NCBI GenBank assembly: GCA_937919925.1
Contig: CALFOT010000102.1
Coordinates: 1-12,753, forward strand
Length of the DNA: 12,753 bases
Reading direction: 5' to 3'
Source of the DNA: an uncultured bacterium
GTDB lineage: Bacteria > Planctomycetota > UBA1135
The notes under the pieces were generated by a model. That model did not search any database, had not been told where the DNA came from, and was given only the letters and a program-made list of their open reading frames with translations. The translations under genes and the position numbers were made by a program. Shown here one piece after another: positions 208 to 12,753 of this stretch. How positions within the stretch are numbered: the first letter of the stretch is position 1; each line of letters starts with the position of its first letter.

Positions 208-223
208 TGGCACGCGCCTTGCA
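208..223 (+). promoter_or_regulatory. sigma-54 (RpoN) dependent -24/-12 promoter, perfect consensus TGGCACG-N4-TTGCA
   Basis: TGGCAC at 208-213, spacer gcgcc, TTGCA at 219-223. The GG and GC dinucleotides are exactly 10 nt apart. The predicted TSS near 233-235 is about 20 nt upstream of the ATG at 254. An NtrC-family activator is encoded in the same gene array. Confidence 0.7.
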
Positions 224-826: not shown

Positions 827-1864
827 ATGACCCTTTTTCTTAATCTAATCACCCTGGCTTTACTCGGGCTTCCACAACAAGAAGGCACTCAAGGTGAGAC
901 TGTGCAATCACCGTCAAGCTCGCAACAAGCCGGTGCCAGCCTCGTACTGCCCGACTTCGATCCTGCCGTTTCCTTTAATCAACTTGAACAAGGAATGCGT
1001 CGCTTGGATCCCGTCACAAAAACACTGCGTGATGCCAACGAGACCATTCATCCTCTGGTCGAGGAGTTCAAGATTGACCCCTCTCTGGAAAACCAGGCGA
1101 AACTGGAAACGGCCTTAGCGAAGTTCACCGCCGATCTTTCACGCAAGATACGCAGTGCTCTTGCTGCCCATGAAAAGGTAACCTTCGCATTTCAAGATAT
1201 CGTGCACGGTGTCAAAGGAATGGGGGTATCCCTTGAACTGTACTCTGCTGATCTGAAGCAGCAGGCCGCCACCGAAGAAGAAGCGCTCGCCGAGAGCGTG
1301 AAGCAGCTAGAGGAGGTAGCCGAGGCTTGGGATGTAGCCGAGGATGCTGAAGAAAAGGAGTCCTTGATGGAACAGTTCAAGGAGCTCTATCGGCTGCAAC
1401 AACGGCAAGTCTATCGCGCACGATATTTAGGTGCATTGGCCAATCACTACAAGGATCTTGCCGGCGGCGTGGTGCAACTGGATGGTTCCCTACGCATGGT
1501 GCATGGTCGCGTTGAGGATGCTTATGATCGGCTCGAAGATGCAGGTGAGATGCTTGCATTTGCCGCAGGCTTCCGTCGCGATGCCACCGGAATCGTAGCC
1601 CACTACCAGTCGTTCTTCGGCCAAGGGAACGATTCGGTGCGCAATGTCCTGGAGCGGATTCAAAGTATCGAAGGACGTCTCGAGATCTTCGAAGGCGCGT
1701 CCAGTGTGCTGGACGAAGCTGGTCCATTGATGCCCATGTTGCATGACATGGATCAACTCACCCAAGGCTTGAAAAACAGTGCCGAAACCGCCGACCAAAA
1801 TGAAGTGGTATCAGCCGATAGCTATTGGGAATCAAAAATGCAAAAAACCCTGCAAGGGGAATAG
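827..1864 (+). CDS. secreted acidic alpha-helical/coiled-coil protein of unknown function (345 aa)
   Basis: GAGGA RBS at 815-819, 7 nt before the ATG. The N-terminal hydrophobic signal peptide is MTLFLNLITLALLGLPQQE. The body is Glu/Ala/Leu/Gln-rich with predicted long helices. No recognisable catalytic motif. Confidence 0.8.
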   Translation: MTLFLNLITLALLGLPQQEGTQGETVQSPSSSQQAGASLVLPDFDPAVSFNQLEQGMRRLDPVTKTLRDANETIHPLVEEFKIDPSLENQAKLETALAKFTADLSRKIRSALAAHEKVTFAFQDIVHGVKGMGVSLELYSADLKQQAATEEEALAESVKQLEEVAEAWDVAEDAEEKESLMEQFKELYRLQQRQVYRARYLGALANHYKDLAGGVVQLDGSLRMVHGRVEDAYDRLEDAGEMLAFAAGFRRDATGIVAHYQSFFGQGNDSVRNVLERIQSIEGRLEIFEGASSVLDEAGPLMPMLHDMDQLTQGLKNSAETADQNEVVSADSYWESKMQKTLQGE

Positions 1865-2476: not shown

Positions 2477-3268
2477 ATGCGTTGTGCGGAACCCATTGCG
2501 TGGATTGTCTCAATAGGAGTTCATGCCTGGCTATTGATGCCAGTGCTTGCAGAAACAAGTGGGCAGTCAACATCGGCAGAAGATGTTGCAACTTCGATAG
2601 TAGCAGTGGCGGTTGTCGCCGAACGCCCCCCTTCAAAGGTCGAGGTTGAACCTGAACAGGAGCCGGAGTATTTGGAAGAGGAGATGGCATCACCGGTGGA
2701 GTTGCGCCCCGCTGACGAGCTCGCTGTGTTTGAGGAGGATGGCGATTCTTGGGAGGAGTCACTGGCAGAACCAGAAGGCAGCGGAGAATCGTCACCAGCA
2801 TCAGCAATGGTGTTTTCCGATGATGCCGTGCGAGCGCTGAACTTGGTGCTGGATCTTTCGGATCATGATCTATTCCTTTCTGCTGCTCAGGACTTAGAGA
2901 TACGTTTCCTCATCTATCCGGCTTCTAAGTCTCCCAAGTGGGTACTTGAGTTACATGGCCCTGGTCTTGAATCGGTGGCACAAATAACCCCTGATTCTTT
3001 GGGTCAGCTTTCCCGTCGCGCGCACGATTTGACTCCCGATCGGTTTTTCCGCACAATTCGCAATCGTGCAACACAATCGGCTGGATTTCCCTCAACCGGG
3101 GCTCGTTTGGTTGCTGCAGTACCCGCTGGAACCGACAAGATGTTCCTTGCTGCGGAAAGGAGTTACCTCCAACAAGCTGGGCCTGCAGCAGCTCAAATGA
3201 GAACTCTGCATGGGTGCCTTGTCCGCGACGGCAGCACTTGGCAGTTAGAGATAACGGGGGGGGTGTAG
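2477..3268 (+). CDS. membrane-anchored protein with TonB-like N-terminal SxxxH transmembrane anchor and acidic Glu/Pro-rich spacer (264 aa from ATG 2477; the longest ORF begins at GTG 2468)
   Basis: AGGAG at 2464-2468 is 8 nt before ATG 2477. The GTG at 2468 overlaps the RBS and is unlikely to be the start. The TM segment IAWIVSIGVHAWLLMPVL carries the S-x3-H spacing seen in the TonB anchor. It is followed by the acidic stretch VEVEPEQEPEYLEEEMASPVELRP. I cannot recognise a TonB C-terminal domain. Confidence 0.75.
   Translation: MRCAEPIAWIVSIGVHAWLLMPVLAETSGQSTSAEDVATSIVAVAVVAERPPSKVEVEPEQEPEYLEEEMASPVELRPADELAVFEEDGDSWEESLAEPEGSGESSPASAMVFSDDAVRALNLVLDLSDHDLFLSAAQDLEIRFLIYPASKSPKWVLELHGPGLESVAQITPDSLGQLSRRAHDLTPDRFFRTIRNRATQSAGFPSTGARLVAAVPAGTDKMFLAAERSYLQQAGPAAAQMRTLHGCLVRDGSTWQLEITGGV
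3256..3263 (+). repeat. G8 homopolymeric tract immediately before the stop codon of CDS 2477..3268
   Basis: A direct read gives ...acg ggg ggg gtg tag. The tract lies at the junction of two reading frames that are both open here (the 2477 frame and the 3214/3331 frame). Confidence 0.9.
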
Positions 3269-3330
3269 AATCTGAACCTCTTGGCCTCTTTCCAGCTACC
3301 CACCCCCAATTCCTGTTCTTCGGAGAACCC

Positions 3331-4845
3331 TTGGCTCATCTCTTAGTCGTTGACGATGCTTATCATAAAGTCCGCTCTGGTCTTGATGCGGTATTGGATG
3401 AACACCGGGTCTCTGGTGCCACCGACGGCGCCGCGGCTCTGCAGCTGATTGAATCCGAACCTTCCATCGACGTTGTGCTGCTTGATGTGCGCATGCCTCC
3501 TCTGGTCGGCAAGATTGAAGAAGAAGAAGGGTTGGCGGTATTCGAGAAAATAAAGGAGATTCGACCAGAGTTGCCGGTGATTTTCCTTTCGGCTTACGAC
3601 GATCTCCGCTTAGTGAATCGCGCTTTGACAGCAGGTGGTTTTTGGTATTTGAAGAAGCCACCAGACTTAGAGGAGACTCGAAGTTTAGTGCGCCGGGCAG
3701 TCGAGCTGAGCCTTGCACAGAGGGAATCTACCGAGAGGCGCGCTGCAGCGGAAGCTCGTCTCCAAGTGGTATCGCGTACGGGGATTCGCAGACCTAATAG
3801 TCGGCTGGTTGGTGATTCATTCGTTCTTCGTCAACTCAACTTAGAGTTGGCGATGTTCGCGGCAACGGATGTTCCTGTACTTTTGCTTGGTGAGACAGGT
3901 TGTGGCAAAGAGCTGTGTGCCCATGAACTTCACGATTTGTCTGCTCGTCGAAGTGGCCCTTTTATTGCTGTCAATTGTCACGAGCTTAATCATAGTGAAA
4001 CTGCTCAGTCGAGGTTGTTCGGCCATAGCAAAGGAGCCTTTACCGGTGCTGTTGAAGACACGCAAGGAGCCTTTGAATCGGCTCATGGTGGCACATTGTT
4101 CCTCGATGAAATCGGCGATTTAGATCTTGATATGCAAGGCCGGTTATTGCGCGTACTTCAAGAGCGTGAGGTCGTGCGCATCGGTGCTGGCGAACGCCCT
4201 CGCGCCGTAGATGTGCGCATGGTCTTTGCCACCAATCGGAATCCCGAGGTCCTTGTAAGTGAAGGTATCGTTCGAGAGGATTTCTACTATCGAATTGCAG
4301 TCGGGGTAGTGAGAGCACCGGCGCTTCGTGAGCATCTCGATGATTTGGAGTTGCTGGTGCCGGCTTTGTTGCAAGCTTCTCTTGTCAGGGATCGGATTCC
4401 TGAATGTACCGTAAGTACTGCTGTTTATCCTTTGCTTTGCAACCACAATTGGCCAGGCAACGTGCGTGAGTTAGAGAATGTTTTGAAAAGGGCTGCCGTG
4501 CGAGCAGCCTCTCAAGGTGTCATCTCACCAGAGCACATTGATTTGCCAAGAGATACCGTTGCCTCAGCCACTTCGGCAACAATCTCAGGCGATTTGTTCA
4601 CAGAGATCTTGGGAAATGGGGGGTACTCTGACGGCTTGAAGCGATTCCGAGACGAATACGGAGAAATCGCAATGCGTGAGGTCCTGACCAGAGCGGTACG
4701 TCTCTCGGGTAGCGTGGTGCGCGCCGGTGAACTGCTTGGCTTTGTTCACCCGGACAGCCGAGCGAAGGATTATGAGAACCTTCGAGCTTGGATGAAAACT
4801 CTTGGCTTGCGCAAAAGTGATATCGCAGAAGGAGGTCTCGCGTGA
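3331..4845 (+). CDS. NtrC-family sigma-54-dependent transcriptional activator / response regulator (receiver + AAA+ sigma-54 interaction domain + Fis-type HTH); likely TTG start at 3331, while the ORF-track frame opens at 3214
   Basis: Receiver motifs are present: LLVVDD, phospho-Asp context VVLLDVRMP, and the conserved Lys in WYLKKP. The AAA+ domain has Walker A GETGCGKE, the sigma-54 contact loop GAFTGA, Walker B LFLDEIGDL, and R-finger/sensor regions VRMVFATNRN and EDFYYRI. The C-terminal HTH is ...RAGELLG.... GGAGA at 3320-3324 lies 6 nt before TTG 3331, and the receiver fold begins at MAHLLVVDD. The stop overlaps the next start (GTGA at 4842-4845). Confidence 0.9.
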   Translation: MAHLLVVDDAYHKVRSGLDAVLDEHRVSGATDGAAALQLIESEPSIDVVLLDVRMPPLVGKIEEEEGLAVFEKIKEIRPELPVIFLSAYDDLRLVNRALTAGGFWYLKKPPDLEETRSLVRRAVELSLAQRESTERRAAAEARLQVVSRTGIRRPNSRLVGDSFVLRQLNLELAMFAATDVPVLLLGETGCGKELCAHELHDLSARRSGPFIAVNCHELNHSETAQSRLFGHSKGAFTGAVEDTQGAFESAHGGTLFLDEIGDLDLDMQGRLLRVLQEREVVRIGAGERPRAVDVRMVFATNRNPEVLVSEGIVREDFYYRIAVGVVRAPALREHLDDLELLVPALLQASLVRDRIPECTVSTAVYPLLCNHNWPGNVRELENVLKRAAVRAASQGVISPEHIDLPRDTVASATSATISGDLFTEILGNGGYSDGLKRFRDEYGEIAMREVLTRAVRLSGSVVRAGELLGFVHPDSRAKDYENLRAWMKTLGLRKSDIAEGGLA

Positions 4846-6467
4846 GTGAATTGATTTGCCCGGATTGTGAACAGCAGCTTGATGGCATCATAGATTTCTG
4901 TACGAACTGCGGCGCCAATCTTGAAGAAGTCGACGCCGGCAGCGACGTTTTCTTTGCGGACTCAGATTTTGAGACCACTGCTGAGGAGCCGCCTTCGCTG
5001 GAATCCTCCACTGTCATTTCGATGGAACCGATTGTTGCTCCATCGCCGCCGCCTGTTATCGCGCCACGAGTTGAAATTCCTTCTTCCAACGATGACCCCC
5101 CAAACCTGGTCATGGATACGGGGGTAAGCGCTCGCGTTGGTGAAAATGGTGTCCTCTGGTTCGGATTGGCGAACAATCGAACCTCCCGGATTAATGCTCG
5201 TCTTGCCGTCAATATGGATAAAGGGGCTCGCGAGATGTTTCACCATTTCAATGGGGAGCGCGAGCTGCGCGTTGGGCCATCCGGCGAAGGTACTGCTTCA
5301 GTTTCGTTCCGCGCTCAAGTAGCAGGTGAGTTTCCGCTTTCGGTCCGCCTCTTCGTCGAAGACTACCGTGCAAGCGGGAAGGTTTCATTCTACCAGGTTG
5401 CCGATCACTGTAAGGTTTTCTTCGGTATCTCTAGTCAACAAAGCGGTGGTTCCATCACCGTGCACAACGAAGTTTGTATCGATCGAAACTATGGCGGCGA
5501 TATCAGCATTCGCCCTGAAGCTCTGCGCAGCATTCAGGAGAAAATGGGAGTTAACGAAGGCGCAAACAGAGCTGCTCCCCAGGAGTTGCCGCTGGAGGCG
5601 CCAGAATCTGTGCAGGGTTGGATACAGCACTCTAGAAACGCCATTCGAGGTTCTCATCTCCGCTTGGATGTCATGCGGCTCGATAAGTTGTATCGGCGTT
5701 TCCATATCCTGGTTTGTAACGAACTCTGGTTTGGTCGTAATGATGTCACGCAACTTCCCGGAGGTCGTAGAGGATTCAACACCCTTGCTTTGCGTTGGCT
5801 TCCCTGTCGGTCAAAAGAGCAAGACCCTAAGAGTTTTTCCTTTAATCAGTCCATCAGCCGCCATCATGCCGGCATGTTGCATGCCGATGAAGCTGGCACA
5901 GCTATTAACTGTTGCTCCAGCTCACTTCAGGTAGATACCCATCAACTTGGCAAAGGAGATTCGCAGCAGTTTCATGCTGGATCCGCCTATCGACTCAAGC
6001 TCGGACATCCGGCCCTTGAGTTTGATATCACTCCTTTGACGACTTCGGGAGAGGATCCTTCGCAATGGTTGCGGGATTGGAACCAATTTACAGGTATGAG
6101 TGGAGCGATTGTTCATCCAACGCGTCACGATGCGATTCGAATCGACCGTGTCAATAACTTGGAGCAAGTCAGTTACGTCATGCTCCTGCAGTCTGCATCC
6201 ATTGGCGGTGGGCGCCGAGATGCTTGTTTTGTCAAGGGACTGCCCCCCGCAGTCTTGAGACTCGCGCGTTGTGGATCCAACCTATTCGTCTTGACTGGCC
6301 CAGATTTTGTAAATCAAGGTACTGCTGCTGCCGACGAAAGGTATTGGCGACCAATATGCGCAGGCGATCGGTACGACTCGGGCGAGTGGAGCTACCGGTT
6401 TTCGACATCTTCGGTTTCCGATACCAAAAGAGAAGATGATTTGGTGAGTGCCTTGGAGGACGAATGA
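4842..6467 (+). CDS. N-terminal zinc-ribbon (DZR-type, CxxC-N11-CxxC) protein with a central FHA-like domain (541 aa), GTG start
   Basis: GGAGG at 4831-4835 is 6 nt before GTG 4842. The N-terminus is MSELICPDCEQQLDGIIDFCTNCGANL, followed by a Pro-rich linker. The FHA signature elements are WFGRN...SISRHHAGM...EAGTAINC...LGKGDSQ...YRLKLG. The loop between the first and second FHA elements is longer than usual, so the call is moderate. Confidence 0.6.
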   Translation: MSELICPDCEQQLDGIIDFCTNCGANLEEVDAGSDVFFADSDFETTAEEPPSLESSTVISMEPIVAPSPPPVIAPRVEIPSSNDDPPNLVMDTGVSARVGENGVLWFGLANNRTSRINARLAVNMDKGAREMFHHFNGERELRVGPSGEGTASVSFRAQVAGEFPLSVRLFVEDYRASGKVSFYQVADHCKVFFGISSQQSGGSITVHNEVCIDRNYGGDISIRPEALRSIQEKMGVNEGANRAAPQELPLEAPESVQGWIQHSRNAIRGSHLRLDVMRLDKLYRRFHILVCNELWFGRNDVTQLPGGRRGFNTLALRWLPCRSKEQDPKSFSFNQSISRHHAGMLHADEAGTAINCCSSSLQVDTHQLGKGDSQQFHAGSAYRLKLGHPALEFDITPLTTSGEDPSQWLRDWNQFTGMSGAIVHPTRHDAIRIDRVNNLEQVSYVMLLQSASIGGGRRDACFVKGLPPAVLRLARCGSNLFVLTGPDFVNQGTAAADERYWRPICAGDRYDSGEWSYRFSTSSVSDTKREDDLVSALEDE

Positions 6468-7489
6468 GCCGTTTCGAAGAACGTATTCGCGCTGCCGAGG
6501 AAAGGGCGAAGGGTAGAGTCCAAGCGGCAGCAAACTGTCATTCCGCCTCGCCTGCGGAGCGTGGCACATGGGCTGAGTATCGGGAGCGCATGGACAGCCT
6601 ACGCAAGGAAATCGACAATCGGTTTCAATCGACCGGAAGTTATCAGAGCAAGGAATGCGGCCCTTTAGATCGCATTTTCCTCGAGCGTGCACTTTCCGCC
6701 CTGAAGCATGGCCTCGTTGAATCCTGTTTCTACAACTTAAGGATTCTCGCCCAAAAGGTGGCCCTCGATAGAGGGAGCCAAGACTTGAGCGCCCTGACCA
6801 CTGCTGGTGAGCGAGTACCGACGGTACGCAAAGAGCTTGGCTTGTTCCTTCAGGGCCGGGTTCCATGTGGAATCCTGGTGGCTGATCTTCTCCCAGATTT
6901 GGCGAGTGTTTTTTTGAAAACACTCCCGTTGCTTGAAGGTGCCGTAGTGGGAGGCTTGGCGATGGCGAAGGAGATTCCAGCTTTGGTAGATGCCGTCCTT
7001 TCGGGCATCGCAAGAGAAGCTGATAGTCTGCGCTCTCAGCGATTATCCTTATTCGCTCTTGTGCGTCGAGCATTGGAGATTGAAGGGCCAAGACTTCAAG
7101 AAGCGGACATGGATGTAAGCGTTGAAAACGAAGTGGAAGACGATCGCATTCATGCTGATGAACCACGTCTTCTCGATACTATCGTTGAGTTGTTAAGAAA
7201 CGCCGCAGTTCATCGAGAAGGAAGTGGTCGCGGGAAGGTGGTCATTAACTTGAGGCCGCGCGAGAACTATATTCACCTTGTGGTCTCAAGTCGACCTGCT
7301 CTTCCACCCCTCATCCCTCTTAATCGACTTTTCGAGACCGGAGTCTCGCGGAGGGAAGGTGGGGGCGATGGGCTTGCAACCGTCCAGCGCACCTTGACTT
7401 CCCATGGTGGCAGGGCGGAGCTTCAGTTTTCTTGTGGCAGTGGCACCTTCGACGTTTGCCTAGCCTTGCCTACCCGGCTTCCGGTTTAG
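6464..7489 (+). CDS. atypical histidine-kinase-like ATPase (GHKL/HATPase_c at C-terminus; no clear H-box; degenerate G1 box) (341 aa)
   Basis: ATGA overlap with the upstream stop (6464-6467). The N-box is LLDTIVELLRNAAVH, the F-box is LFETGVSRR, and the G2 box is GGGDGLATVQRTLTSHGG, with the typical HK ending GSGTFDVCLALP. The expected G1 position reads VVSSRPALPP instead of DxGxG. The N-terminal 230 aa are helical; H26 is the only weak H-box candidate. Confidence 0.65.
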   Translation: MSRFEERIRAAEERAKGRVQAAANCHSASPAERGTWAEYRERMDSLRKEIDNRFQSTGSYQSKECGPLDRIFLERALSALKHGLVESCFYNLRILAQKVALDRGSQDLSALTTAGERVPTVRKELGLFLQGRVPCGILVADLLPDLASVFLKTLPLLEGAVVGGLAMAKEIPALVDAVLSGIAREADSLRSQRLSLFALVRRALEIEGPRLQEADMDVSVENEVEDDRIHADEPRLLDTIVELLRNAAVHREGSGRGKVVINLRPRENYIHLVVSSRPALPPLIPLNRLFETGVSRREGGGDGLATVQRTLTSHGGRAELQFSCGSGTFDVCLALPTRLPV

Positions 7490-7597: not shown

Positions 7598-7613
7598 TGG
7601 CATGATGGTTGCA
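7598..7613 (+). promoter_or_regulatory. sigma-54-type -24/-12 promoter with one mismatch: TGGCATG-N4-TTGCA
   Basis: TGGCAT at 7598-7603, spacer gatgg, TTGCA at 7609-7613. The GG/GC spacing is correct. It sits in the only sizeable intergenic gap (119 bp) of the array, immediately upstream of the lipoprotein gene. Confidence 0.5.
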
Positions 7614-7635: not shown

Positions 7636-8748
7636 ATGACTACCATGCGAATCATCATCATTACTACATTGAGTCTCGTTGGCTGTGTGAGCCCCCCTCT
7701 TGGCTCTACTTTCGAGGATGCTCAGTCTCTCGCTAATCGCGGGGAGTTCGGAGCTGCAGTAGCTGTAGCAGAACCGCTGCTGCTCAGAACAACTTCAGTT
7801 TCTACACTTGAGGAGGTCTGTGGGTGGGCGCTAAAGGCCGGGCGGATGGAGCAGGCATATGATTTCTCCAATCGGCTCATCGGCTTCGAATCCCAATCAT
7901 GGGTTGGCCATCGCACTCGTGGGCTGGCTCTTGTTTCTTTAAAGCGGCTCAGTGCTGCGATTCCAGATCTTGAGTTTGTCCATCGTAATGGCCCGCCAGA
8001 TTCTGAAGTTCAACGCGCCCTTGGTCTTGCGATGGAATTTGTTGGAAGAGATCCAGGCAAGGCAAACTCCCTGCTAGTTTTATCTGGCTTCGATGATGAT
8101 GAGGTGACCGCCGCTCTCAGCCGCCTCGAAGTTCTGCTTCATCCCGCGCCACTGCCTTCCGTCACAGTTACCGACGAACCTGCCGCATGGACTCAAGTCG
8201 CCGCACTTGATTTGGCCACGACATGTTTTGTCTTAGATGAGCAGCTGAGGCTTTCGGGCTTCCTTCTCAAAAACCAGGAAGCCGCTGCTCTTACCGGCGA
8301 CGAATATGCATCTGGCTTACGCGCTGCCGACCGTCGTCGAGATGCTGCTGCCCTTGTCGACCTTCCAGACGAAGATGGCACAGCCGCCGTTCTCACTCAT
8401 TTCGTCGAAGTCGGTCTACTGAGTGTCGACAACAACAAAATCAACCCCGACGAGATTCTCCAGCGTGGTCAGTTTGCACAACTTGTAACGGACCTTCTGC
8501 GATTACTCGAGGAGGATAAAGGATTTGCGGTTGGAGGTGACGGTGAATCTCCTTTCTCGGACATGAGCGTTCGGCATCCCCGCTTTGCGGTTGCGAGCGC
8601 AGCTTGTGCGCTTGGTGTTCTGCACGCAGACGCATCGCGACGTTTTCGGCCTTCGGACCCGCTTTCTGGCGCGGAACTTTCCGACGCTCTCGACCTACTT
8701 CGCGAAGTTCTTCTTCGTTCTCCGCTTTACCAAGAGATGATTCGATGA
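7636..8748 (+). CDS. lipoprotein with TPR-like helical repeats and two C-terminal SLH (S-layer homology)-like repeats (371 aa from ATG 7636; the track ORF opens at TTG 7609, which overlaps the promoter)
   Basis: The lipoprotein signal is MTTMRIIIITTLSLVGC (lipobox LVGC). The SLH-like motifs are LPDEDGTAAVLTHFVEVGLLSVDNNKINPDEILQRGQFAQLV and FSDMSVRHPRFAVASAACALGVLHADASRRFRPSDPLSGAELSDAL. Both follow the F-x-D...A...G(I/V/L)...F-x-P...(I/L)-(T/S)-R/G-A-E pattern. Confidence 0.7.
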   Translation: MTTMRIIIITTLSLVGCVSPPLGSTFEDAQSLANRGEFGAAVAVAEPLLLRTTSVSTLEEVCGWALKAGRMEQAYDFSNRLIGFESQSWVGHRTRGLALVSLKRLSAAIPDLEFVHRNGPPDSEVQRALGLAMEFVGRDPGKANSLLVLSGFDDDEVTAALSRLEVLLHPAPLPSVTVTDEPAAWTQVAALDLATTCFVLDEQLRLSGFLLKNQEAAALTGDEYASGLRAADRRRDAAALVDLPDEDGTAAVLTHFVEVGLLSVDNNKINPDEILQRGQFAQLVTDLLRLLEEDKGFAVGGDGESPFSDMSVRHPRFAVASAACALGVLHADASRRFRPSDPLSGAELSDALDLLREVLLRSPLYQEMIR

Positions 8749-9803
8749 TAGCCCTCCTTTCGATTGCCTGTTTTGCTTTGGCTCAGCCACTTGTGGCTTT
8801 ACCGGCACAAGAACCTAGTCATGATGTCTCGGATCAATCTGCAAGGTCGACTTCACTCGAGGTCGCAGGAGAAGCTGTTGGGCTTACTCGTGAAGCTGCA
8901 ATATCCGCTGCGAAACAAGATGCCATGTCGCGCGCGATTCAGGAACTTTATCGCGAAGAAGGTCTTGCCGCACCCCTGCAGGCTGTTGCCGATCGCTTAG
9001 CAGCGCTGGATCGTTCACTCGGTGGTTTTCTTGCCGCTGAGACTCTTGATTCTGAATGGAAGGAAGAGACTAGTCTCGCGAAGGTTCGCTTGAAAGTCGA
9101 AGCCGACATCGTCGCTTTTCGTCGCTGTGCTTCACGTGCTCTGCGTGTGCAAGTAATTTGCACAGGCCCCCTTTCAGACCAGATTGCATCCAGTTTCAAG
9201 GAGAGGCTTGCCGCCGAAGGTTTTGAGGTGGTATTGGGTGGATCGCGGGAAGGCGCCGATGCGATTGTCATCGCCAAGCCGGTGCTCGATAAATTGCCAG
9301 GCGGCGAGGCAGGTTTCTCTTCTTGGCGCGGCGCCCTCACGATTGAAGTTCATTCGCTCTCGATGCGTGACGACGCCACAGTTGTGCTTGCTGATCGTCG
9401 ATTCGAACCAAAGGGAGCCATGGTCGGCAGCAATGCCCGTGAAGTGGCACGGAAGACCATCCTTCCGCTTTGTTCAGAGGCGGCAGATCTTGCCGCACAG
9501 CGTATTTTGAACGCAGCTTCGGCAAGTGCCCGTTGGACAATCTCCGTCGAAGGCGCAACCGAACGCTACCTCGTCGAAGATTTGCTCGACGCCATTACCC
9601 AACGAGGTGTTTCTGCCGGCGTGGTGGGGGTTAGTTCTCTCAGCTGGGATCCTCCGAATGCAACCTTCCGGTTGGTCGTCGATCGTCGTGGGGCGAATCG
9701 CCTTGGTGGTATCATGGGCACTCTGGATTTGTCTGAAGGTAGGCGGGTGCGGGTGTTACGCGAAGCAAACTCAACCATGATCGTTAGAATTGAATCCTCC
9801 TGA
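8745..9803 (+). CDS. secreted protein with N-terminal LPP20-like domain (353 aa from ATG 8745; the track ORF is artificially extended upstream to 8604)
   Basis: ATGA overlap with the stop of the lipoprotein gene (8745-8748). The signal peptide is MIALLSIACFALAQPLVALPAQEP. EVAGEAVGLTREAAISAAKQDAMSRAIQELY resembles the LPP20/FlgP-type lipoprotein fold signature. The C-terminal half (GADAIVIAKPV...LTIEVHSLSMRDDATVV) weakly resembles the CsgG/FlgO-type motif. Confidence 0.55.
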   Translation: MIALLSIACFALAQPLVALPAQEPSHDVSDQSARSTSLEVAGEAVGLTREAAISAAKQDAMSRAIQELYREEGLAAPLQAVADRLAALDRSLGGFLAAETLDSEWKEETSLAKVRLKVEADIVAFRRCASRALRVQVICTGPLSDQIASSFKERLAAEGFEVVLGGSREGADAIVIAKPVLDKLPGGEAGFSSWRGALTIEVHSLSMRDDATVVLADRRFEPKGAMVGSNAREVARKTILPLCSEAADLAAQRILNAASASARWTISVEGATERYLVEDLLDAITQRGVSAGVVGVSSLSWDPPNATFRLVVDRRGANRLGGIMGTLDLSEGRRVRVLREANSTMIVRIESS

Positions 9804-9810
9804 TTTTGTC

Positions 9811-10899
9811 ATGTATTTCCTTCTCACTCTTCCTCTCGTTCTGTTTCAGAACGGCCCCTCTCAGCTCGATGAGATTCTTCCCAGTCGAGCCGAAAGCCTT
9901 GCTATTGAGCTCGCCGCTGACTTGAATGAAAGCGGTATTCTCGGAGAGCATGGCATCCAAGCGTTCGCCTTCCCAGGTGCAATCGGTGATGTACAAGGCG
10001 CTTTTCATGACCGCCTTTTAAATCACATGTTGCGCGACTTTGGCTTGGAGTTGATTGCCGAGCGCGAAGAAAGGGTTCAAATACTGCAAAACTATTTCCG
10101 TAAAGATGGTTTTGAACAAGGCATCTATGATGGTGGCAGCCTAAAGAGTCTTGGTGGACAATTTTTGGACAACGAGGCGATTCTCGGCGCCAGAATTTAT
10201 TCGGTGGACGGAGCGGATGGGTTAGAGATATATGCTCAAGCTGAACTTTGGGATGCACGCCGCGCCGTCATGGTGTGGAATAAAACGATATCGCTCTTGG
10301 TGAAGGAACCGGTTTCTCCGCCTGTTGTCGTAGAGAAAGAGGAATCCTTATTCGTGCCAGTCCTAATCATTCTTGCTGGAATCATCGCCGCGATCGCCAT
10401 ATTCAGTCTAATGAATCGCAGGGAACAGATTGCGAAGGCTCAGCGACGTGGAGGGGCATCTATCGAGAGGCAATCGCAGAAAAAGCGCGACCGTGATTTG
10501 CGAGGTGAGGCTGCTCGACGAGCGCATGCAGGAGCAGATCGCTTGACCGCAGCAGCAAGCCAAGTCGATGCCGCAGCTCGTTCTATCTTCGAAAATTCAG
10601 GTGAAGACTTACGGTCGCTCGCAAGGAATTTCGAGAAGGCTGCCGCAGGTACATTTCGCCGTCCCGTAGAGGAGCGAGGTGATTCAGAGATTGCTGCTGC
10701 ACGCGCCCTAGCTGACCATGACGAACGTACACTCGGCCTAGTAGAGGAAATGGGTCGTACTGTTGATACCCTAGTTGCCGGGGCTTCTTCTGATTCCGCT
10801 GAGGCGGTAGCTAAGTTGGCTGCCAAGCTAGAAGACCTCATCCAGAGTGCTAATCACCGTCTCGGAGAACGCACTGACCTGATTCGTTCCAGTAGTTAA
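9811..10899 (+). CDS. bitopic membrane protein: signal peptide, periplasmic CsgG/FlgO/TolB_N-like motif domain, single TM helix, cytoplasmic charged coiled-coil tail (363 aa from ATG 9811; alternative TTG 9790)
   Basis: The N-terminus is MYFLLTLPLVLFQNG. The periplasmic region FAFPGAIGD...GLELIAEREERVQILQNYFRKDGFEQGIYDGGSLKSLGGQFLDNEAILGARIYSVDGADGLEIYAQAELWDARRAVMVW follows the motif ER..l..il.E...q.sG.yd....k.lG...gadaii.G.i......g..i.a.l.d..tg.vvw. The TM helix is LFVPVLIILAGIIAAIAIFSL, followed by an Arg/Ala/Glu-rich tail. Confidence 0.55.
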   Translation: MYFLLTLPLVLFQNGPSQLDEILPSRAESLAIELAADLNESGILGEHGIQAFAFPGAIGDVQGAFHDRLLNHMLRDFGLELIAEREERVQILQNYFRKDGFEQGIYDGGSLKSLGGQFLDNEAILGARIYSVDGADGLEIYAQAELWDARRAVMVWNKTISLLVKEPVSPPVVVEKEESLFVPVLIILAGIIAAIAIFSLMNRREQIAKAQRRGGASIERQSQKKRDRDLRGEAARRAHAGADRLTAAASQVDAAARSIFENSGEDLRSLARNFEKAAAGTFRRPVEERGDSEIAAARALADHDERTLGLVEEMGRTVDTLVAGASSDSAEAVAKLAAKLEDLIQSANHRLGERTDLIRSSS

Positions 10900-10907
10900 T
10901 AATTGTC

Positions 10908-12533
10908 ATGACCCCCTTCTCATTTCTGAAACGATGCCCTGAGTGTAAGAACAAGCTAGAGCGGGGAGCTAATTTTTGCGGGTGCGGTGCGCCGGTGCGT
11001 GACTTTCGTCGCACTTGTCACCACTGTCATCGCATCGTTGATGCCCAAGCGGAAAGGTGTGCTCATTGCAACGCCCTTCTTGCAGAGGTCGAACCTCGCT
11101 ATGTTTTGATTCGCTGGGCTCGCCGTTCGCGTGAATTTGCCCGACGCATTGATGTTGTGGCCTTCACGGAAGGCGAAGAGGTAATCACAGATTCGGGCGC
11201 GGCACTTCAGGGTGCACTTGATGGTGGTGTTACGGTCGAAGCCGGGACGAAAGCGTTACTTCTTGTTAACGGTAGCTTGGAGAAGGTGCTTGAGCCCGGT
11301 TGGACTTCCACAACCAGCGATGCTCTCTCGGTTTATTCAGGTGAAGAATATATTCACACTTTGACCGTGATTGCTGTTGACTCAAGCGACACCGATTTAG
11401 CATGGCGATTCCCGCTTGCACTTGACTCGAACTCGGATGCCGGTGATGAGAAATCTTCCGCGATGGCGCTCGTCACTAAAGATGGGTTTCGTGTTGCGCT
11501 AAGGTTAGGGATTACCATTAGCCTTGCCGATGCAGCGGCCTTGGCGAGTAATCTGCTCAAGGAGCAAGTTTCCATTACTGTCAGTAGTCTCGCCGCTTGG
11601 CTTGCGCCTACGGTAGACGCCGCTGTTCGAGAACTCGTTGGACAGACCGATAGCGCAGAATTAAGAACGCCAGATAGCAATTGGCGTAGCCAATTTGAAG
11701 GTTTGTTGCGCGATCGACTCCAGCGTGACCTTGAGGTTGTTGGCCTCCGAATGGAAAGGCTCAGGGGTTTTGGGCTGGAGAGTCCTAGGCTCAAAGAGTT
11801 GGAAGACGATCGAGAAACCACTGCAGTCATTCGTGGCAAGGCGGGAGAGGCTCGAGCAAGACTTGAGCACATCGAGAATCTTCAAGATGCACTTGTCAAG
11901 AAACGTCGTCTCGATGACAAGGCACGTCTGGAAATCGAGAAGTCGGGCATTCTCACCGACGCAGAGATTGCCGAACTTAATCGCCATGCAGATGATGAGG
12001 AACTCGGTTGGAAACACGCGCGCGAAATGTTGGCCGCGAAACACGCTGCAGGGGTTGAAGAAATATCGAAACGTGCGTCCTTGAAGCTATTCGTCGAAAG
12101 GAAGGAAGAGGAAATTCGTCTTGATGACAAGCGCAAGCGGCTCGATATGGACCGAGATGAGCGGGAACGCGATCACGAGGCTGATGTCGCTCTGAAAATC
12201 ATTGCTGCCAAACAGCAACATAAAATGGAACAGATTCAGGTCTTCCAGGATTGGGATGATCCCGAGAAAATCCTTACCGTTCTTGCTGGGATTAGTCCGG
12301 ATGCTGCAGAAGCACTTCGTGCAAAATATCAGCGTGCCAACGACGATGACCGCGTTGAGTTGCTCAAGGAAATGCAAGGAGAAATGTCCAAGGTTCAACA
12401 GTCTGCGATGGGTGGAATGGCCAGTGTTGCAGCGGCAAAGGCAACCACACGGTTAATTCCATGTCCACATTGTCGCATCAATGTTTCCGTTGATACAACG
12501 AAGTGCCCCTCTTGCGATAAGCTTGTGAAGTAG
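10908..12533 (+). CDS. soluble zinc-ribbon / SPFH (band-7, flotillin-like) / coiled-coil protein with two N-terminal and one C-terminal zinc ribbons (541 aa)
   Basis: The N-terminus contains CPECKNKLERGANFCGCGAPV and CHHCHRIVDAQAERCAHCNALL. The SPFH motifs are VEAGTKALLLVNGSLEKVLEPGW and MALVTKDGFRVALRLGITISLADAAALASNLL, plus a downstream GLRMERLRGFGL region. A long E/R/K/D-rich coiled coil follows. The C-terminus is IPCPHCRINVSVDTTKCPSCDKLV. No TM segment. Confidence 0.7.
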   Translation: MTPFSFLKRCPECKNKLERGANFCGCGAPVRDFRRTCHHCHRIVDAQAERCAHCNALLAEVEPRYVLIRWARRSREFARRIDVVAFTEGEEVITDSGAALQGALDGGVTVEAGTKALLLVNGSLEKVLEPGWTSTTSDALSVYSGEEYIHTLTVIAVDSSDTDLAWRFPLALDSNSDAGDEKSSAMALVTKDGFRVALRLGITISLADAAALASNLLKEQVSITVSSLAAWLAPTVDAAVRELVGQTDSAELRTPDSNWRSQFEGLLRDRLQRDLEVVGLRMERLRGFGLESPRLKELEDDRETTAVIRGKAGEARARLEHIENLQDALVKKRRLDDKARLEIEKSGILTDAEIAELNRHADDEELGWKHAREMLAAKHAAGVEEISKRASLKLFVERKEEEIRLDDKRKRLDMDRDERERDHEADVALKIIAAKQQHKMEQIQVFQDWDDPEKILTVLAGISPDAAEALRAKYQRANDDDRVELLKEMQGEMSKVQQSAMGGMASVAAAKATTRLIPCPHCRINVSVDTTKCPSCDKLVK

Positions 12534-12561: not shown

Positions 12562-12753
12562 ATGCGCTGCACCACCTGCGGATTTGAAAATTCTGGCACA
12601 GCCAAATTCTGTGCCGAATGTGGTGCCAGGATTGCGCCGCCTTCCTCATCGGCCCAAGTTCCTGACGCAGAGCTTTCACTCCAGCCCACCCTCGGCTCTG
12701 GTCCTCCATCGGACTCCCCAGCAGCGTTAGCTGGCTCCGAATCCCTCATCGCC
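12562..12753 (+). CDS. 5'-partial CDS (continues past window end): N-terminal zinc-ribbon protein with Pro/Ser-rich linker
   Basis: ATG at 12562, open to the end of the window (64 codons), so it is absent from the ORF track. MRCTTCGFENSGTAKFCAECGARI is the same CxxCG-N9/11-FCxxCG zinc-ribbon pattern as at the N-termini of CDS 4842 and CDS 10908. Confidence 0.6.
   Translation, partial: MRCTTCGFENSGTAKFCAECGARIAPPSSSAQVPDAELSLQPTLGSGPPSDSPAALAGSESLIA

Follow-up and report, generated by a model that had tools for sequence, protein, structure and literature searches.

The stretch of DNA analysed here, called the window below, comprises positions 1 to 12,753 of contig CALFOT010000102.1 (GenBank assembly GCA_937919925.1), from an uncultured bacterium of the Planctomycetota (UBA1135). 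Near its 3' end lies an open reading frame (ORF) whose product carries zinc ribbons at both ends of an SPFH (Band_7) domain and a long helical region. This product is designated the 'SPFH protein', and it is the subject of this analysis. Its gene comes fourth in a close-set run of five or more genes on one strand, which starts at position 7645 and has gaps of -4, 7, 8 and 28 nucleotides. The features of the window are collected in Table 1.

Table 1. Features of the window, with the evidence for each assignment
Feature	Position	Strand	Evidence
SPFH gene, product of the layout ribbon-ribbon-SPFH-helical region-ribbon	10908..12533	+	ORF with ATG start, 541 amino acids; Pfam, AlphaFold2, Foldseek
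N-terminal double zinc ribbon, residues 10-55	10935..11072	+	DZR, invariant cysteines, DZANK1 profile match
Basic motif RWARRSREFARRID, residues 69-82	11112..11153	+	family conservation, modelled beta-hairpin, hydrophobic moment
SPFH/Band_7 domain, Pfam residues 109-285 (modelled fold about 61-292)	11232..11762	+	Pfam, AlphaFold2, Foldseek
Charged helical region, residues 293-513, flotillin-like wall and roof helices	11784..12446	+	AlphaFold2, composition, Flotillin-2 profile match
C-terminal zinc ribbon, residues 517-538	12456..12521	+	invariant cysteines, weak Zn_ribbon_15
Bitopic membrane protein, 8 nucleotides before the SPFH gene, candidate membrane dock	9811..10899	+	hydropathy, AlphaFold2 model of the tail, conservation
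5' end of a zinc ribbon-Ser/Thr kinase gene, 28 nucleotides past the SPFH stop codon, running off the window	12562..12753	+	translation, contig L001
Exported TPR-like protein, first gene of the run	7645..8748	+	hydrophobic N-terminus, weak TPR_9
Exported protein of unknown fold, second gene of the run	8745..9803	+	hydrophobic N-terminus
Putative sigma-54-type element TGGCAT-N5-TTGCA	7598..7613	+	intergenic, before the run that extends from 7645 to the end
Perfect sigma-54-type element TGGCAC-N5-TTGCA, 31 nucleotides before ORF 254 (first ORF)	208..223	+	motif match
Response-regulator sigma-54 activator (REC and AAA+)	3214..4845	+	Sigma54_activat E = 1.1e-56, Response_reg E = 2.8e-16
541-amino-acid protein with N-terminal ribbon of the same type and a possibly FHA-like C-terminal half	4842..6467	+	weak ribbon matches
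HATPase_c protein, histidine-kinase-type ATPase, no HisKA detected	6464..7489	+	HATPase_c E = 2.1e-7

In Pfam searches, Band_7 (PF01145) matched residues 109-285 of the SPFH protein well above its gathering score (38.8 bits against 23.6, E = 1.3e-9). The region thus scores as SPFH, as had been proposed in a first-pass annotation made from the sequence alone. The same annotation had placed zinc ribbons at both ends of the protein, and this was borne out as well. DZR (PF12773) scored 30.7 bits over residues 10-55, above its gathering score of 27.3, in a segment made of two Cys4 ribbons, C10/C13/C24/C26 and C37/C40/C51/C54, while in this protein the C-terminal ribbon, C519/C522/C533/C536, drew only a weak match (Zn_ribbon_15, E = 0.016). 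All twelve ribbon cysteines, eight N-terminal and four C-terminal, are invariant across a 60-sequence alignment of relatives, which are 20-48% identical to the SPFH protein except for one 85% homologue, and ribbon models matched 53 to 60 of the 60 aligned relatives. A sequence-profile search of the PDB with the family profile reached the double ribbon of DZANK1 (E = 3.2e-8); the SPFH protein alone, searched against the PDB sequences, gave only a chance match to an antibody chain.

Some zinc ribbon families are DNA or RNA binders, and the profile of the present family also gave faint matches to ribosomal protein bL32. In addition, the ribbon of YdjG, a Bacillus subtilis protein discussed below, has been annotated as being of the transcription factor type (bioRxiv 10.1101/2021.02.15.431232). 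The ribbons of the SPFH protein might then bind nucleic acid, and the protein would be a regulator instead of a scaffold. We consider this very improbable: ribbons of the DZR/Zn_Ribbon_1 type recur on the kinases, FHA proteins and lectin-fold proteins of the loci where the family is found, no DNA-binding domain was detected in the SPFH protein, and about 84% of its length belongs to the SPFH domain and the helical region.

No membrane anchor was recognised in the protein. Along its whole length, no 19-residue Kyte-Doolittle window exceeded 1.6. The maximum, 1.50 at residues 196-214, lies inside the confidently modelled SPFH core; as a control, the transmembrane segment of the protein encoded by the upstream neighbour (9811-10899) scored 3.03. 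Within residues 1-110, the hydropathy scan found neither an N-terminal transmembrane helix nor a membrane hairpin, and by the same scan the protein has no anchor of the canonical type known from FloA, FloT, HflK/C and QmcA. The AlphaFold2 model described below was equally devoid of a membrane hairpin, which agrees with the initial claim that the protein contains no hydrophobic segment.

The AlphaFold2 model, built with the 60-sequence alignment, had a mean predicted local distance difference test score (pLDDT) of 82.5. It consists of two small ribbons, the SPFH core, long helices and a terminal ribbon. The pLDDT is mostly above 90 across residues 110-290 or so, which form the alpha/beta fold of SPFH domains, and helices are modelled at residues 293-332, 364-447 and 479-513. 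The best Foldseek match in the PDB was a flotillin complex (9l3g_a, E = 5.6e-9, 447 aligned columns); further matches were to stomatin, HflK/C, prohibitin and QmcA (E from 1e-4 to 5e-8), all with a probability of 1.00. The isolated SPFH domains of stomatin and flotillin also gave a Foldseek probability of 1.00, with TM-scores of 0.6-0.74 when normalised to the target. In the profile search of the PDB, Flotillin-2 was the sole SPFH protein reached (residues 51-377, E = 5e-4). We conclude that it is close to certain that the SPFH protein is an anchorless flotillin-like SPFH protein. Concerning its helices, the first-pass annotation had described them as long, charged and EA-rich. Charged they are, since 41.6% of residues 293-513 carry a charge, and Ala and Glu account for 14.0% and 12.7% of them, respectively; taken literally, the term EA-rich does not apply, as only three EA dipeptides occur in these 221 residues.

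Foldseek also matched the major vault protein, over 410-450 columns and with a probability of 1.00. The vault particle has an SPFH-like shoulder domain. A free cytosolic, vault-like cage that never docks, and whose ribbons close or decorate the particle, would be in keeping with this match and with the missing anchor. Such a cage is nevertheless improbable, as the vault matches were weaker than those to flotillin, stomatin and HflK/C, the immediate neighbours of the gene encode membrane or exported proteins, and YdjI, the only soluble relative studied, is associated with the membrane in cells (PMC8581546).

The most conserved motif of the family lies at the start of the SPFH body. Its consensus is RWxRxxxDFAxRIE, it reads RWARRSREFARRID in the SPFH protein, and residues W70 and A78 are at least 90% conserved among the 60 aligned sequences. 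It is modelled as a beta-hairpin that opens the SPFH body (strands 66-70 and 76-84), and it has the highest hydrophobic moment of the protein. This basic hairpin is a candidate contact for lipid headgroups or for a partner protein.

Word-indexed homologue searches returned only four close relatives (100, 85, 46 and 39% identity), even when the 60-sequence profile was used. An exhaustive profile search of 1.84 billion cluster representatives detected 338 proteins at E <= 1e-3, including 176 at E <= 1e-10. The ribbon-SPFH architecture is therefore not a one-off, and defines a sizeable unannotated family. Among the best 150 representatives, 121 have at least two N-terminal ribbons, 110 have the C-terminal ribbon, and 93 have ribbons at both ends; many of those without the full set are fragments. 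Any hydrophobic segment was found in only 2 of the 150. The shortest has 214 residues and the longest 887 (median 621), with most of the variation in the helical region. Band_7 was matched by 55 of the 60 aligned relatives. Annotations, collected for 20 representatives, consisted of 'hypothetical protein' and one ribbon-based mis-annotation as RPABC4/Spt4, none of them informative. Close relatives were placed in metagenome-assembled genomes of Planctomycetota, one by its name (a Planctomycetes genome) and two by genome scan, a placement that covers the closest clade only.

The first-pass annotation had implied that an SPFH protein without an anchor is unusual, a view that the literature does not bear out. 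In B. subtilis, the SPFH protein YdjI/SamI is soluble and ends in a C-terminal zinc finger (PMC8581546, PMC11237479). Its membrane localisation is lost upon deletion of either of the adjacent membrane proteins, YdjG or YdjH (PMC8581546; bioRxiv 10.64898/2026.02.06.704340), and YdjG has two zinc ribbons before its transmembrane segment (PMC11237479). The prokaryotic subfamilies SPFH8 and SPFH9 were also predicted to be soluble, being devoid of an N-terminal transmembrane segment, in a paper that makes no mention of zinc (Hinderhofer et al. 2009, PMC2636767). Finally, an archaeal protein that combines SPFH, coiled coil and zinc ribbon is encoded in 'Meth_adaptin' loci of ESCRT (the endosomal sorting complexes needed for transport), and in related archaeal ESCRT loci, membrane Ser/Thr kinases are encoded along with FHA proteins (Makarova et al. 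2024, PMC10936438). The same combination is found in the SPFH protein, the two being compared at the domain level only; the archaeal protein differs in being linked to Vps4 and ESCRT-III, both absent from the window. With these precedents, an SPFH protein that lacks an anchor is in principle no longer a surprise: the SPFH protein adds a variation on known anchorless SPFH proteins, and anchorlessness itself is not new.

YdjI/SamI and the SPFH protein have in common the absence of a hydrophobic anchor, a C-terminal ribbon, and adjoining genes for membrane proteins, while the two N-terminal ribbons of the SPFH protein equal in number the modules of YdjG. In its architecture, the protein resembles a YdjI/flotillin-like body onto which a YdjG-type double ribbon has been fused. 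Joining these two parts in one chain suggests that ribbons and SPFH body work together. The differences are several. Unlike YdjI, the SPFH protein matches Band_7 and, at the profile level, Flotillin-2, rather than Band_7_1; the double ribbon is on the SPFH protein itself; and the helical region, of about 220 residues, is much longer. In contrast to the YdjI operon, there is no pspA or TPM-domain gene nearby, the neighbours being Ser/Thr kinases and a sigma-54 activator, and the bitopic protein that adjoins is a different one.

Comparison with the flotillins is equally mixed. Eukaryotic flotillins have no transmembrane helix and scaffold receptor kinases (PMC3980747). As in Flotillin-1/2 and FloT/YuaG, the SPFH domain is followed by long charged helices, and flotillin is the best structural match, with 13-16% identity in the structural alignments. 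The SPFH protein differs in having no hairpin, acylation-site region or transmembrane segment, in bearing ribbons at both ends, and in that no NfeD-type (YuaF/YqiJ) partner gene was matched among the ORFs of the window. HflK/C, QmcA, stomatin and prohibitin share with it the SPFH fold and the helices, which in these proteins build closed cages, but they are anchored by an N-terminal transmembrane segment or hairpin, and have no zinc ribbons.

The likeness to YdjI raises the question of a role in membrane repair. In that role the SPFH protein would bring an ESCRT-III/PspA-like polymer, and perhaps a Vps4-like ATPase as well, to membrane under stress; YdjI/SamI is such an adaptor for PspA. The shared C-terminal ribbon and missing anchor (PMC8581546) speak for this, as do the archaeal SPFH protein of ESCRT loci with kinases and FHA proteins (PMC10936438), and the YdjI-type model Band_7_1 (PF13421), which was also matched, weakly, by 22 of the 60 relatives (best E = 1.8e-6). 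At two distant loci of the family, L014 (2618-5133) and L016 (4460-8043), AAA ATPases adjoin proteins of about 200 amino acids, with kinases also present. These pairs are possibly ESCRT-III/Vps4-like: one ATPase, at L016, matched Vps4_C weakly, and one small protein, at L014, gave a faint match to Snf7 (E = 0.0076). However, both matches fall below the Pfam thresholds, and among the ORFs of the window no PspA, TPM (YdjH-type), Snf7 or AAA (Vps4-like) gene was matched. On balance we regard a repair adaptor as unlikely, if worth keeping in mind.

In the literature searched, the presence of ribbons at both ends of an SPFH protein and its conservation in at least 93 of the 150 representative clusters appear undescribed. 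The same applies to the association with receptor-type Ser/Thr kinases, FHA proteins and, at two loci, a sigma-54 activator, which emerges from the genes surrounding the SPFH gene and its homologues.

The gene directly upstream of the SPFH gene encodes a membrane protein, which was correctly called bitopic in the first-pass annotation. It is made of a signal-like N-terminus, an external domain of about 155 amino acids, the transmembrane segment mentioned above (residues 176-204 or so), and a helical cytosolic tail, again of about 155 amino acids; the basic stretch NRREQIAKAQRRGG directly follows the transmembrane segment, and the tail helices were modelled by AlphaFold2 with a pLDDT of 70-90. 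A bitopic neighbour is found directly upstream of the SPFH gene at L005 (47% identity) and L010 (53% for the external domain). At the distant loci L020 and L022, proteins of matching size (358 and 357 amino acids, respectively) occupy the same position; they have a transmembrane segment near residue 200 and a helical tail, and their external domains match CsgG (E = 1.9e-9 and 1.8e-6). Since a bitopic neighbour is conserved beside the SPFH gene, recruitment of the SPFH protein by the neighbouring membrane protein is plausible. We found no evidence that the ribbons, the other route to the membrane put forward initially, themselves bind membrane.

Three features had escaped the first-pass annotation: the kinase gene on the other side of the SPFH gene, the sigma-54-type element before the run, and the kinases at most of the family loci compared. 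The translation of the truncated kinase gene begins with MRCTTCGF...KFCAECG. A nearly identical contig, L001, extends this gene into a Pkinase domain (E = 5.4e-33), and the kinase is 70% identical to the one located 3' of the SPFH homologue at L005. The retrieved contigs that encode exactly the same SPFH protein (L001-L004; 28 index blocks, 10-20 kb) all end 0.5-0.7 kb past the SPFH gene, inside the kinase gene; this recurrent assembly break may be due to paralogous kinase sequences or to population variation.

The first two genes of the run are also related to a kinase. The product of 7645-8748 is 44% identical to residues 676-1025, just past the transmembrane segment, of a 1380-amino-acid zinc ribbon-kinase of L005, and the product of 8745-9803 is 56% identical to residues 1068-1379 of the same protein. 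The two exported proteins of the window correspond to consecutive external parts of a single ribbon-kinase-DZR-transmembrane protein at L005 (4051-8193). Two genes in one place and a single kinase gene in the other is, judging from these alignments, a case of gene fission or fusion between close lineages.

Further upstream, the window contains putative regulatory elements and regulators. Sigma-54-type matches with at most one mismatch numbered three in the window, compared to 0.60 expected, and 4 of 200 shuffled sequences reached this number. The window may correspond to two sigma-54-dependent operons, because each of the coding-strand elements fronts a run of genes and because an activator with a receiver domain is encoded at 3214-4845. 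This activator likely regulates the sigma-54-type promoters; it alone matches PADLOC models, those of the RtcR/PspF type, via its AAA+ domain. The C-terminal half of the 4842-6467 product could be aligned, weakly but colinearly, with a protein of L013 that combines a zinc ribbon and tandem FHA domains (SISRHH compared to RISRHH, E = 0.05); no Pfam match to an FHA domain was obtained, and FHA is a possible assignment here. The HATPase_c protein encoded by 6464-7489 has its homologue in the C-terminal part of a Pkinase-HATPase_c fusion, also from L013 (11935-14061), a hint that Ser/Thr kinase signalling may be connected to a two-component-like output. At L013, the fusion is followed by a receiver-sigma-54 activator, and the window also pairs its HATPase_c protein with such an activator. 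Two small helical proteins at the beginning of the window (827-1864 and 1901-2464) were considered as ESCRT-III/PspA candidates and rejected: neither Pfam nor PDB sequences supported the assignment, and their hydrophobic N-termini suggest export.

A comparison was carried out on 13 independent loci with a family member. A locus search with a four-sequence alignment gave 7 metagenome loci. At least one Ser/Thr kinase gene was present in 9 of the 13 (the window, L005, L013, L014, L015, L016, L017, L018 and L020), and several of these hold two to four such genes; the four kinase-free loci are mostly short or truncated contigs. Many of the kinases share a common build, in which a zinc ribbon and the kinase domain are followed by a transmembrane segment, with or without a double ribbon before it, and by an external domain, often FGE-sulfatase (C-type lectin fold). 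FHA proteins were found at L013, L015 and L020. The SPFH protein of L013 is 22% identical to that of the window, and its sigma-54 activator is 38% identical to the 3214-4845 product. A sigma-54 element with one mismatch lies about 200 nucleotides before the gene that precedes the SPFH gene of L013, a single match that is not significant by itself.

At L018 (1293-2900 and 5183-6424), a second Band_7 protein with hydrophobic segments (residues 296-353) is encoded directly before the ribbon-SPFH gene, which is itself followed by genes for a membrane vWA protein and two kinases. By analogy with HflK/C or Flotillin-1/2, the anchored and the anchorless SPFH proteins of L018 may form a pair.

Some of the loci carry genes that recall defence systems. 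Diversity-generating retroelements are present at L005 and L008, with bAvd and reverse transcriptase genes flanking the relative of L008. At L005, which encodes the 46%-identical relative, three repeats were found (1-145, 335-479 and 3788-3932): a template repeat, upstream of bAvd and reverse transcriptase, and two variable repeats, one of which lies at the 3' end of a kinase-FGE-sulfatase gene. From about column 27 on, in the conserved part, all but one of the differences between the repeats are at template adenines, and this retroelement is apparently active, as far as its sequence tells. Family member P0022 occurs on 33 contigs, which reach 125 kb in length; at L017 (11814-21793), its gene precedes those for a Lit-like Peptidase_U49 with an N-terminal ribbon and for four Ser/Thr kinases, one of them with FGE-sulfatase. 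Caspase-FGE-sulfatase proteins are encoded at L013, and at L019 (2040-4436) a family member is immediately upstream of reverse transcriptase and Cas1 genes, a reverse transcriptase-associated pair for CRISPR adaptation.

Retroelements that target kinase-FGE-sulfatase proteins, together with caspase, Peptidase_U49, vWA and reverse transcriptase-Cas1 neighbours, could mean that the family is the superstructure-forming part of a system directed against invaders. Hypervariable lectin-fold sensors would signal through a kinase relay, and the SPFH assembly would contain a protease or other effector, or set the threshold for its action. Band7-like domains are indeed listed among the superstructure-forming modules of such systems (PMC7159879). 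We nevertheless find this quite unlikely: in the window, no recognisable effector, reverse transcriptase or FGE-sulfatase domain was found, and neither the SPFH protein nor the products of the flanking genes matched a defence model of PADLOC-DB. Moreover, a tblastn search of plasmids with family member P0026 gave no match, and no relative was found in the viral contigs scanned with the close-relative alignment. It should be noted that this explanation overlaps with a kinase scaffold, to which we now turn.

To our knowledge, every solved SPFH protein with a helical extension (HflK/C, flotillin, stomatin, prohibitin, QmcA) forms a closed ring or cage. In such assemblies the membrane is where the N-terminal end of the SPFH domain lies, and the C-termini come together at the apex. 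Because in the SPFH protein the double ribbon and the basic hairpin take up the membrane-end position, and the C-terminal ribbon that of the apex, we propose a submembrane assembly with a base docked by partners. The recruitment of YdjI/SamI by YdjG, with its two ribbons and transmembrane segment, and by YdjH offers a parallel for the docking. The SPFH protein would be a cytosolic flotillin-like scaffold, assembling via its helices into a ring or cage. The double ribbon and the beta-hairpin would replace the transmembrane segment or hairpin of canonical members, so that this end faces the inner membrane, and partner proteins, in place of an anchor of its own, would hold the scaffold there. There are two kinds of candidate dock: the 9811-10899 product, with its helical cytosolic tail, and the membrane Ser/Thr kinases, which bear ribbons of the same type. 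Once docked, the scaffold would cluster or enclose the cytosolic parts of receptor kinases and their partners, while the C-terminal ribbons would converge at the apex. Expression of the gene run would probably be driven by the upstream sigma-54 activator, and the adjacent HATPase_c protein could provide the input to the receiver domain of this activator.

We give even chances to the proposal that the SPFH protein is a submembrane scaffold, docked by partners, that organises a receptor-kinase module. Several observations weigh against it. The oligomer, the partner contacts and the localisation are all deduced from homology and gene order. The SPFH protein itself has no match to the YdjI-type model Band_7_1 at E <= 0.1. 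The full AlphaFold2 model of the bitopic neighbour, obtained with a two-sequence alignment, has a pLDDT of 54 and is poor outside the tail; the alignment of this protein with the CsgG-like ones of L020 and L022 is colinear yet falls short of significance (hhalign E = 0.014, probability 3%), and L014 and L015 have no bitopic neighbour. As for the kinases, none is present within 7 kb on either side of the SPFH gene at L021, and in Planctomycetota, where Ser/Thr kinases abound, chance alone should place some of them beside SPFH genes, so that 9 of 13 is to be taken as a raw count. Lastly, the predicted sigma-54 element at 7598-7613 carries one mismatch.

A broader proposal can be formulated for the whole family. 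The ribbon-SPFH proteins may be the scaffold of an undescribed bacterial receptor-kinase assembly, a flotillin-like cage docked through zinc-ribbon contacts under clusters of membrane Ser/Thr kinases whose external sensors are, in some lineages, diversified by retroelements. Depending on the locus, the assembly would couple ligand detection to sigma-54 transcription, to ESCRT-like membrane remodelling or to protease effectors, and the DZR-type ribbon that scaffold, kinases, FHA proteins and lectin-fold proteins all bear would be their common docking module. This is a tentative proposal, to which we attach a rather low probability.

How bacterial SPFH proteins choose their targets is the wider question behind these observations. 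YdjI/SamI is a precedent showing that partners can place an anchorless SPFH protein, and the ribbon-SPFH family would carry this principle of placement past the Firmicutes, at least to the Planctomycetota and to many unclassified metagenomic lineages. In this family, a double ribbon of the type seen on a partner sits on the scaffold, and the scaffold is linked to receptor-type Ser/Thr kinases, FHA proteins and sigma-54 control. Should the ribbons turn out to be the docking modules, a function would be gained for one of the commonest uncharacterised small domains of bacterial signalling proteins, and the family would represent a bacterial counterpart to the flotillin- and HIR-type scaffolding of receptor kinases in eukaryotes.

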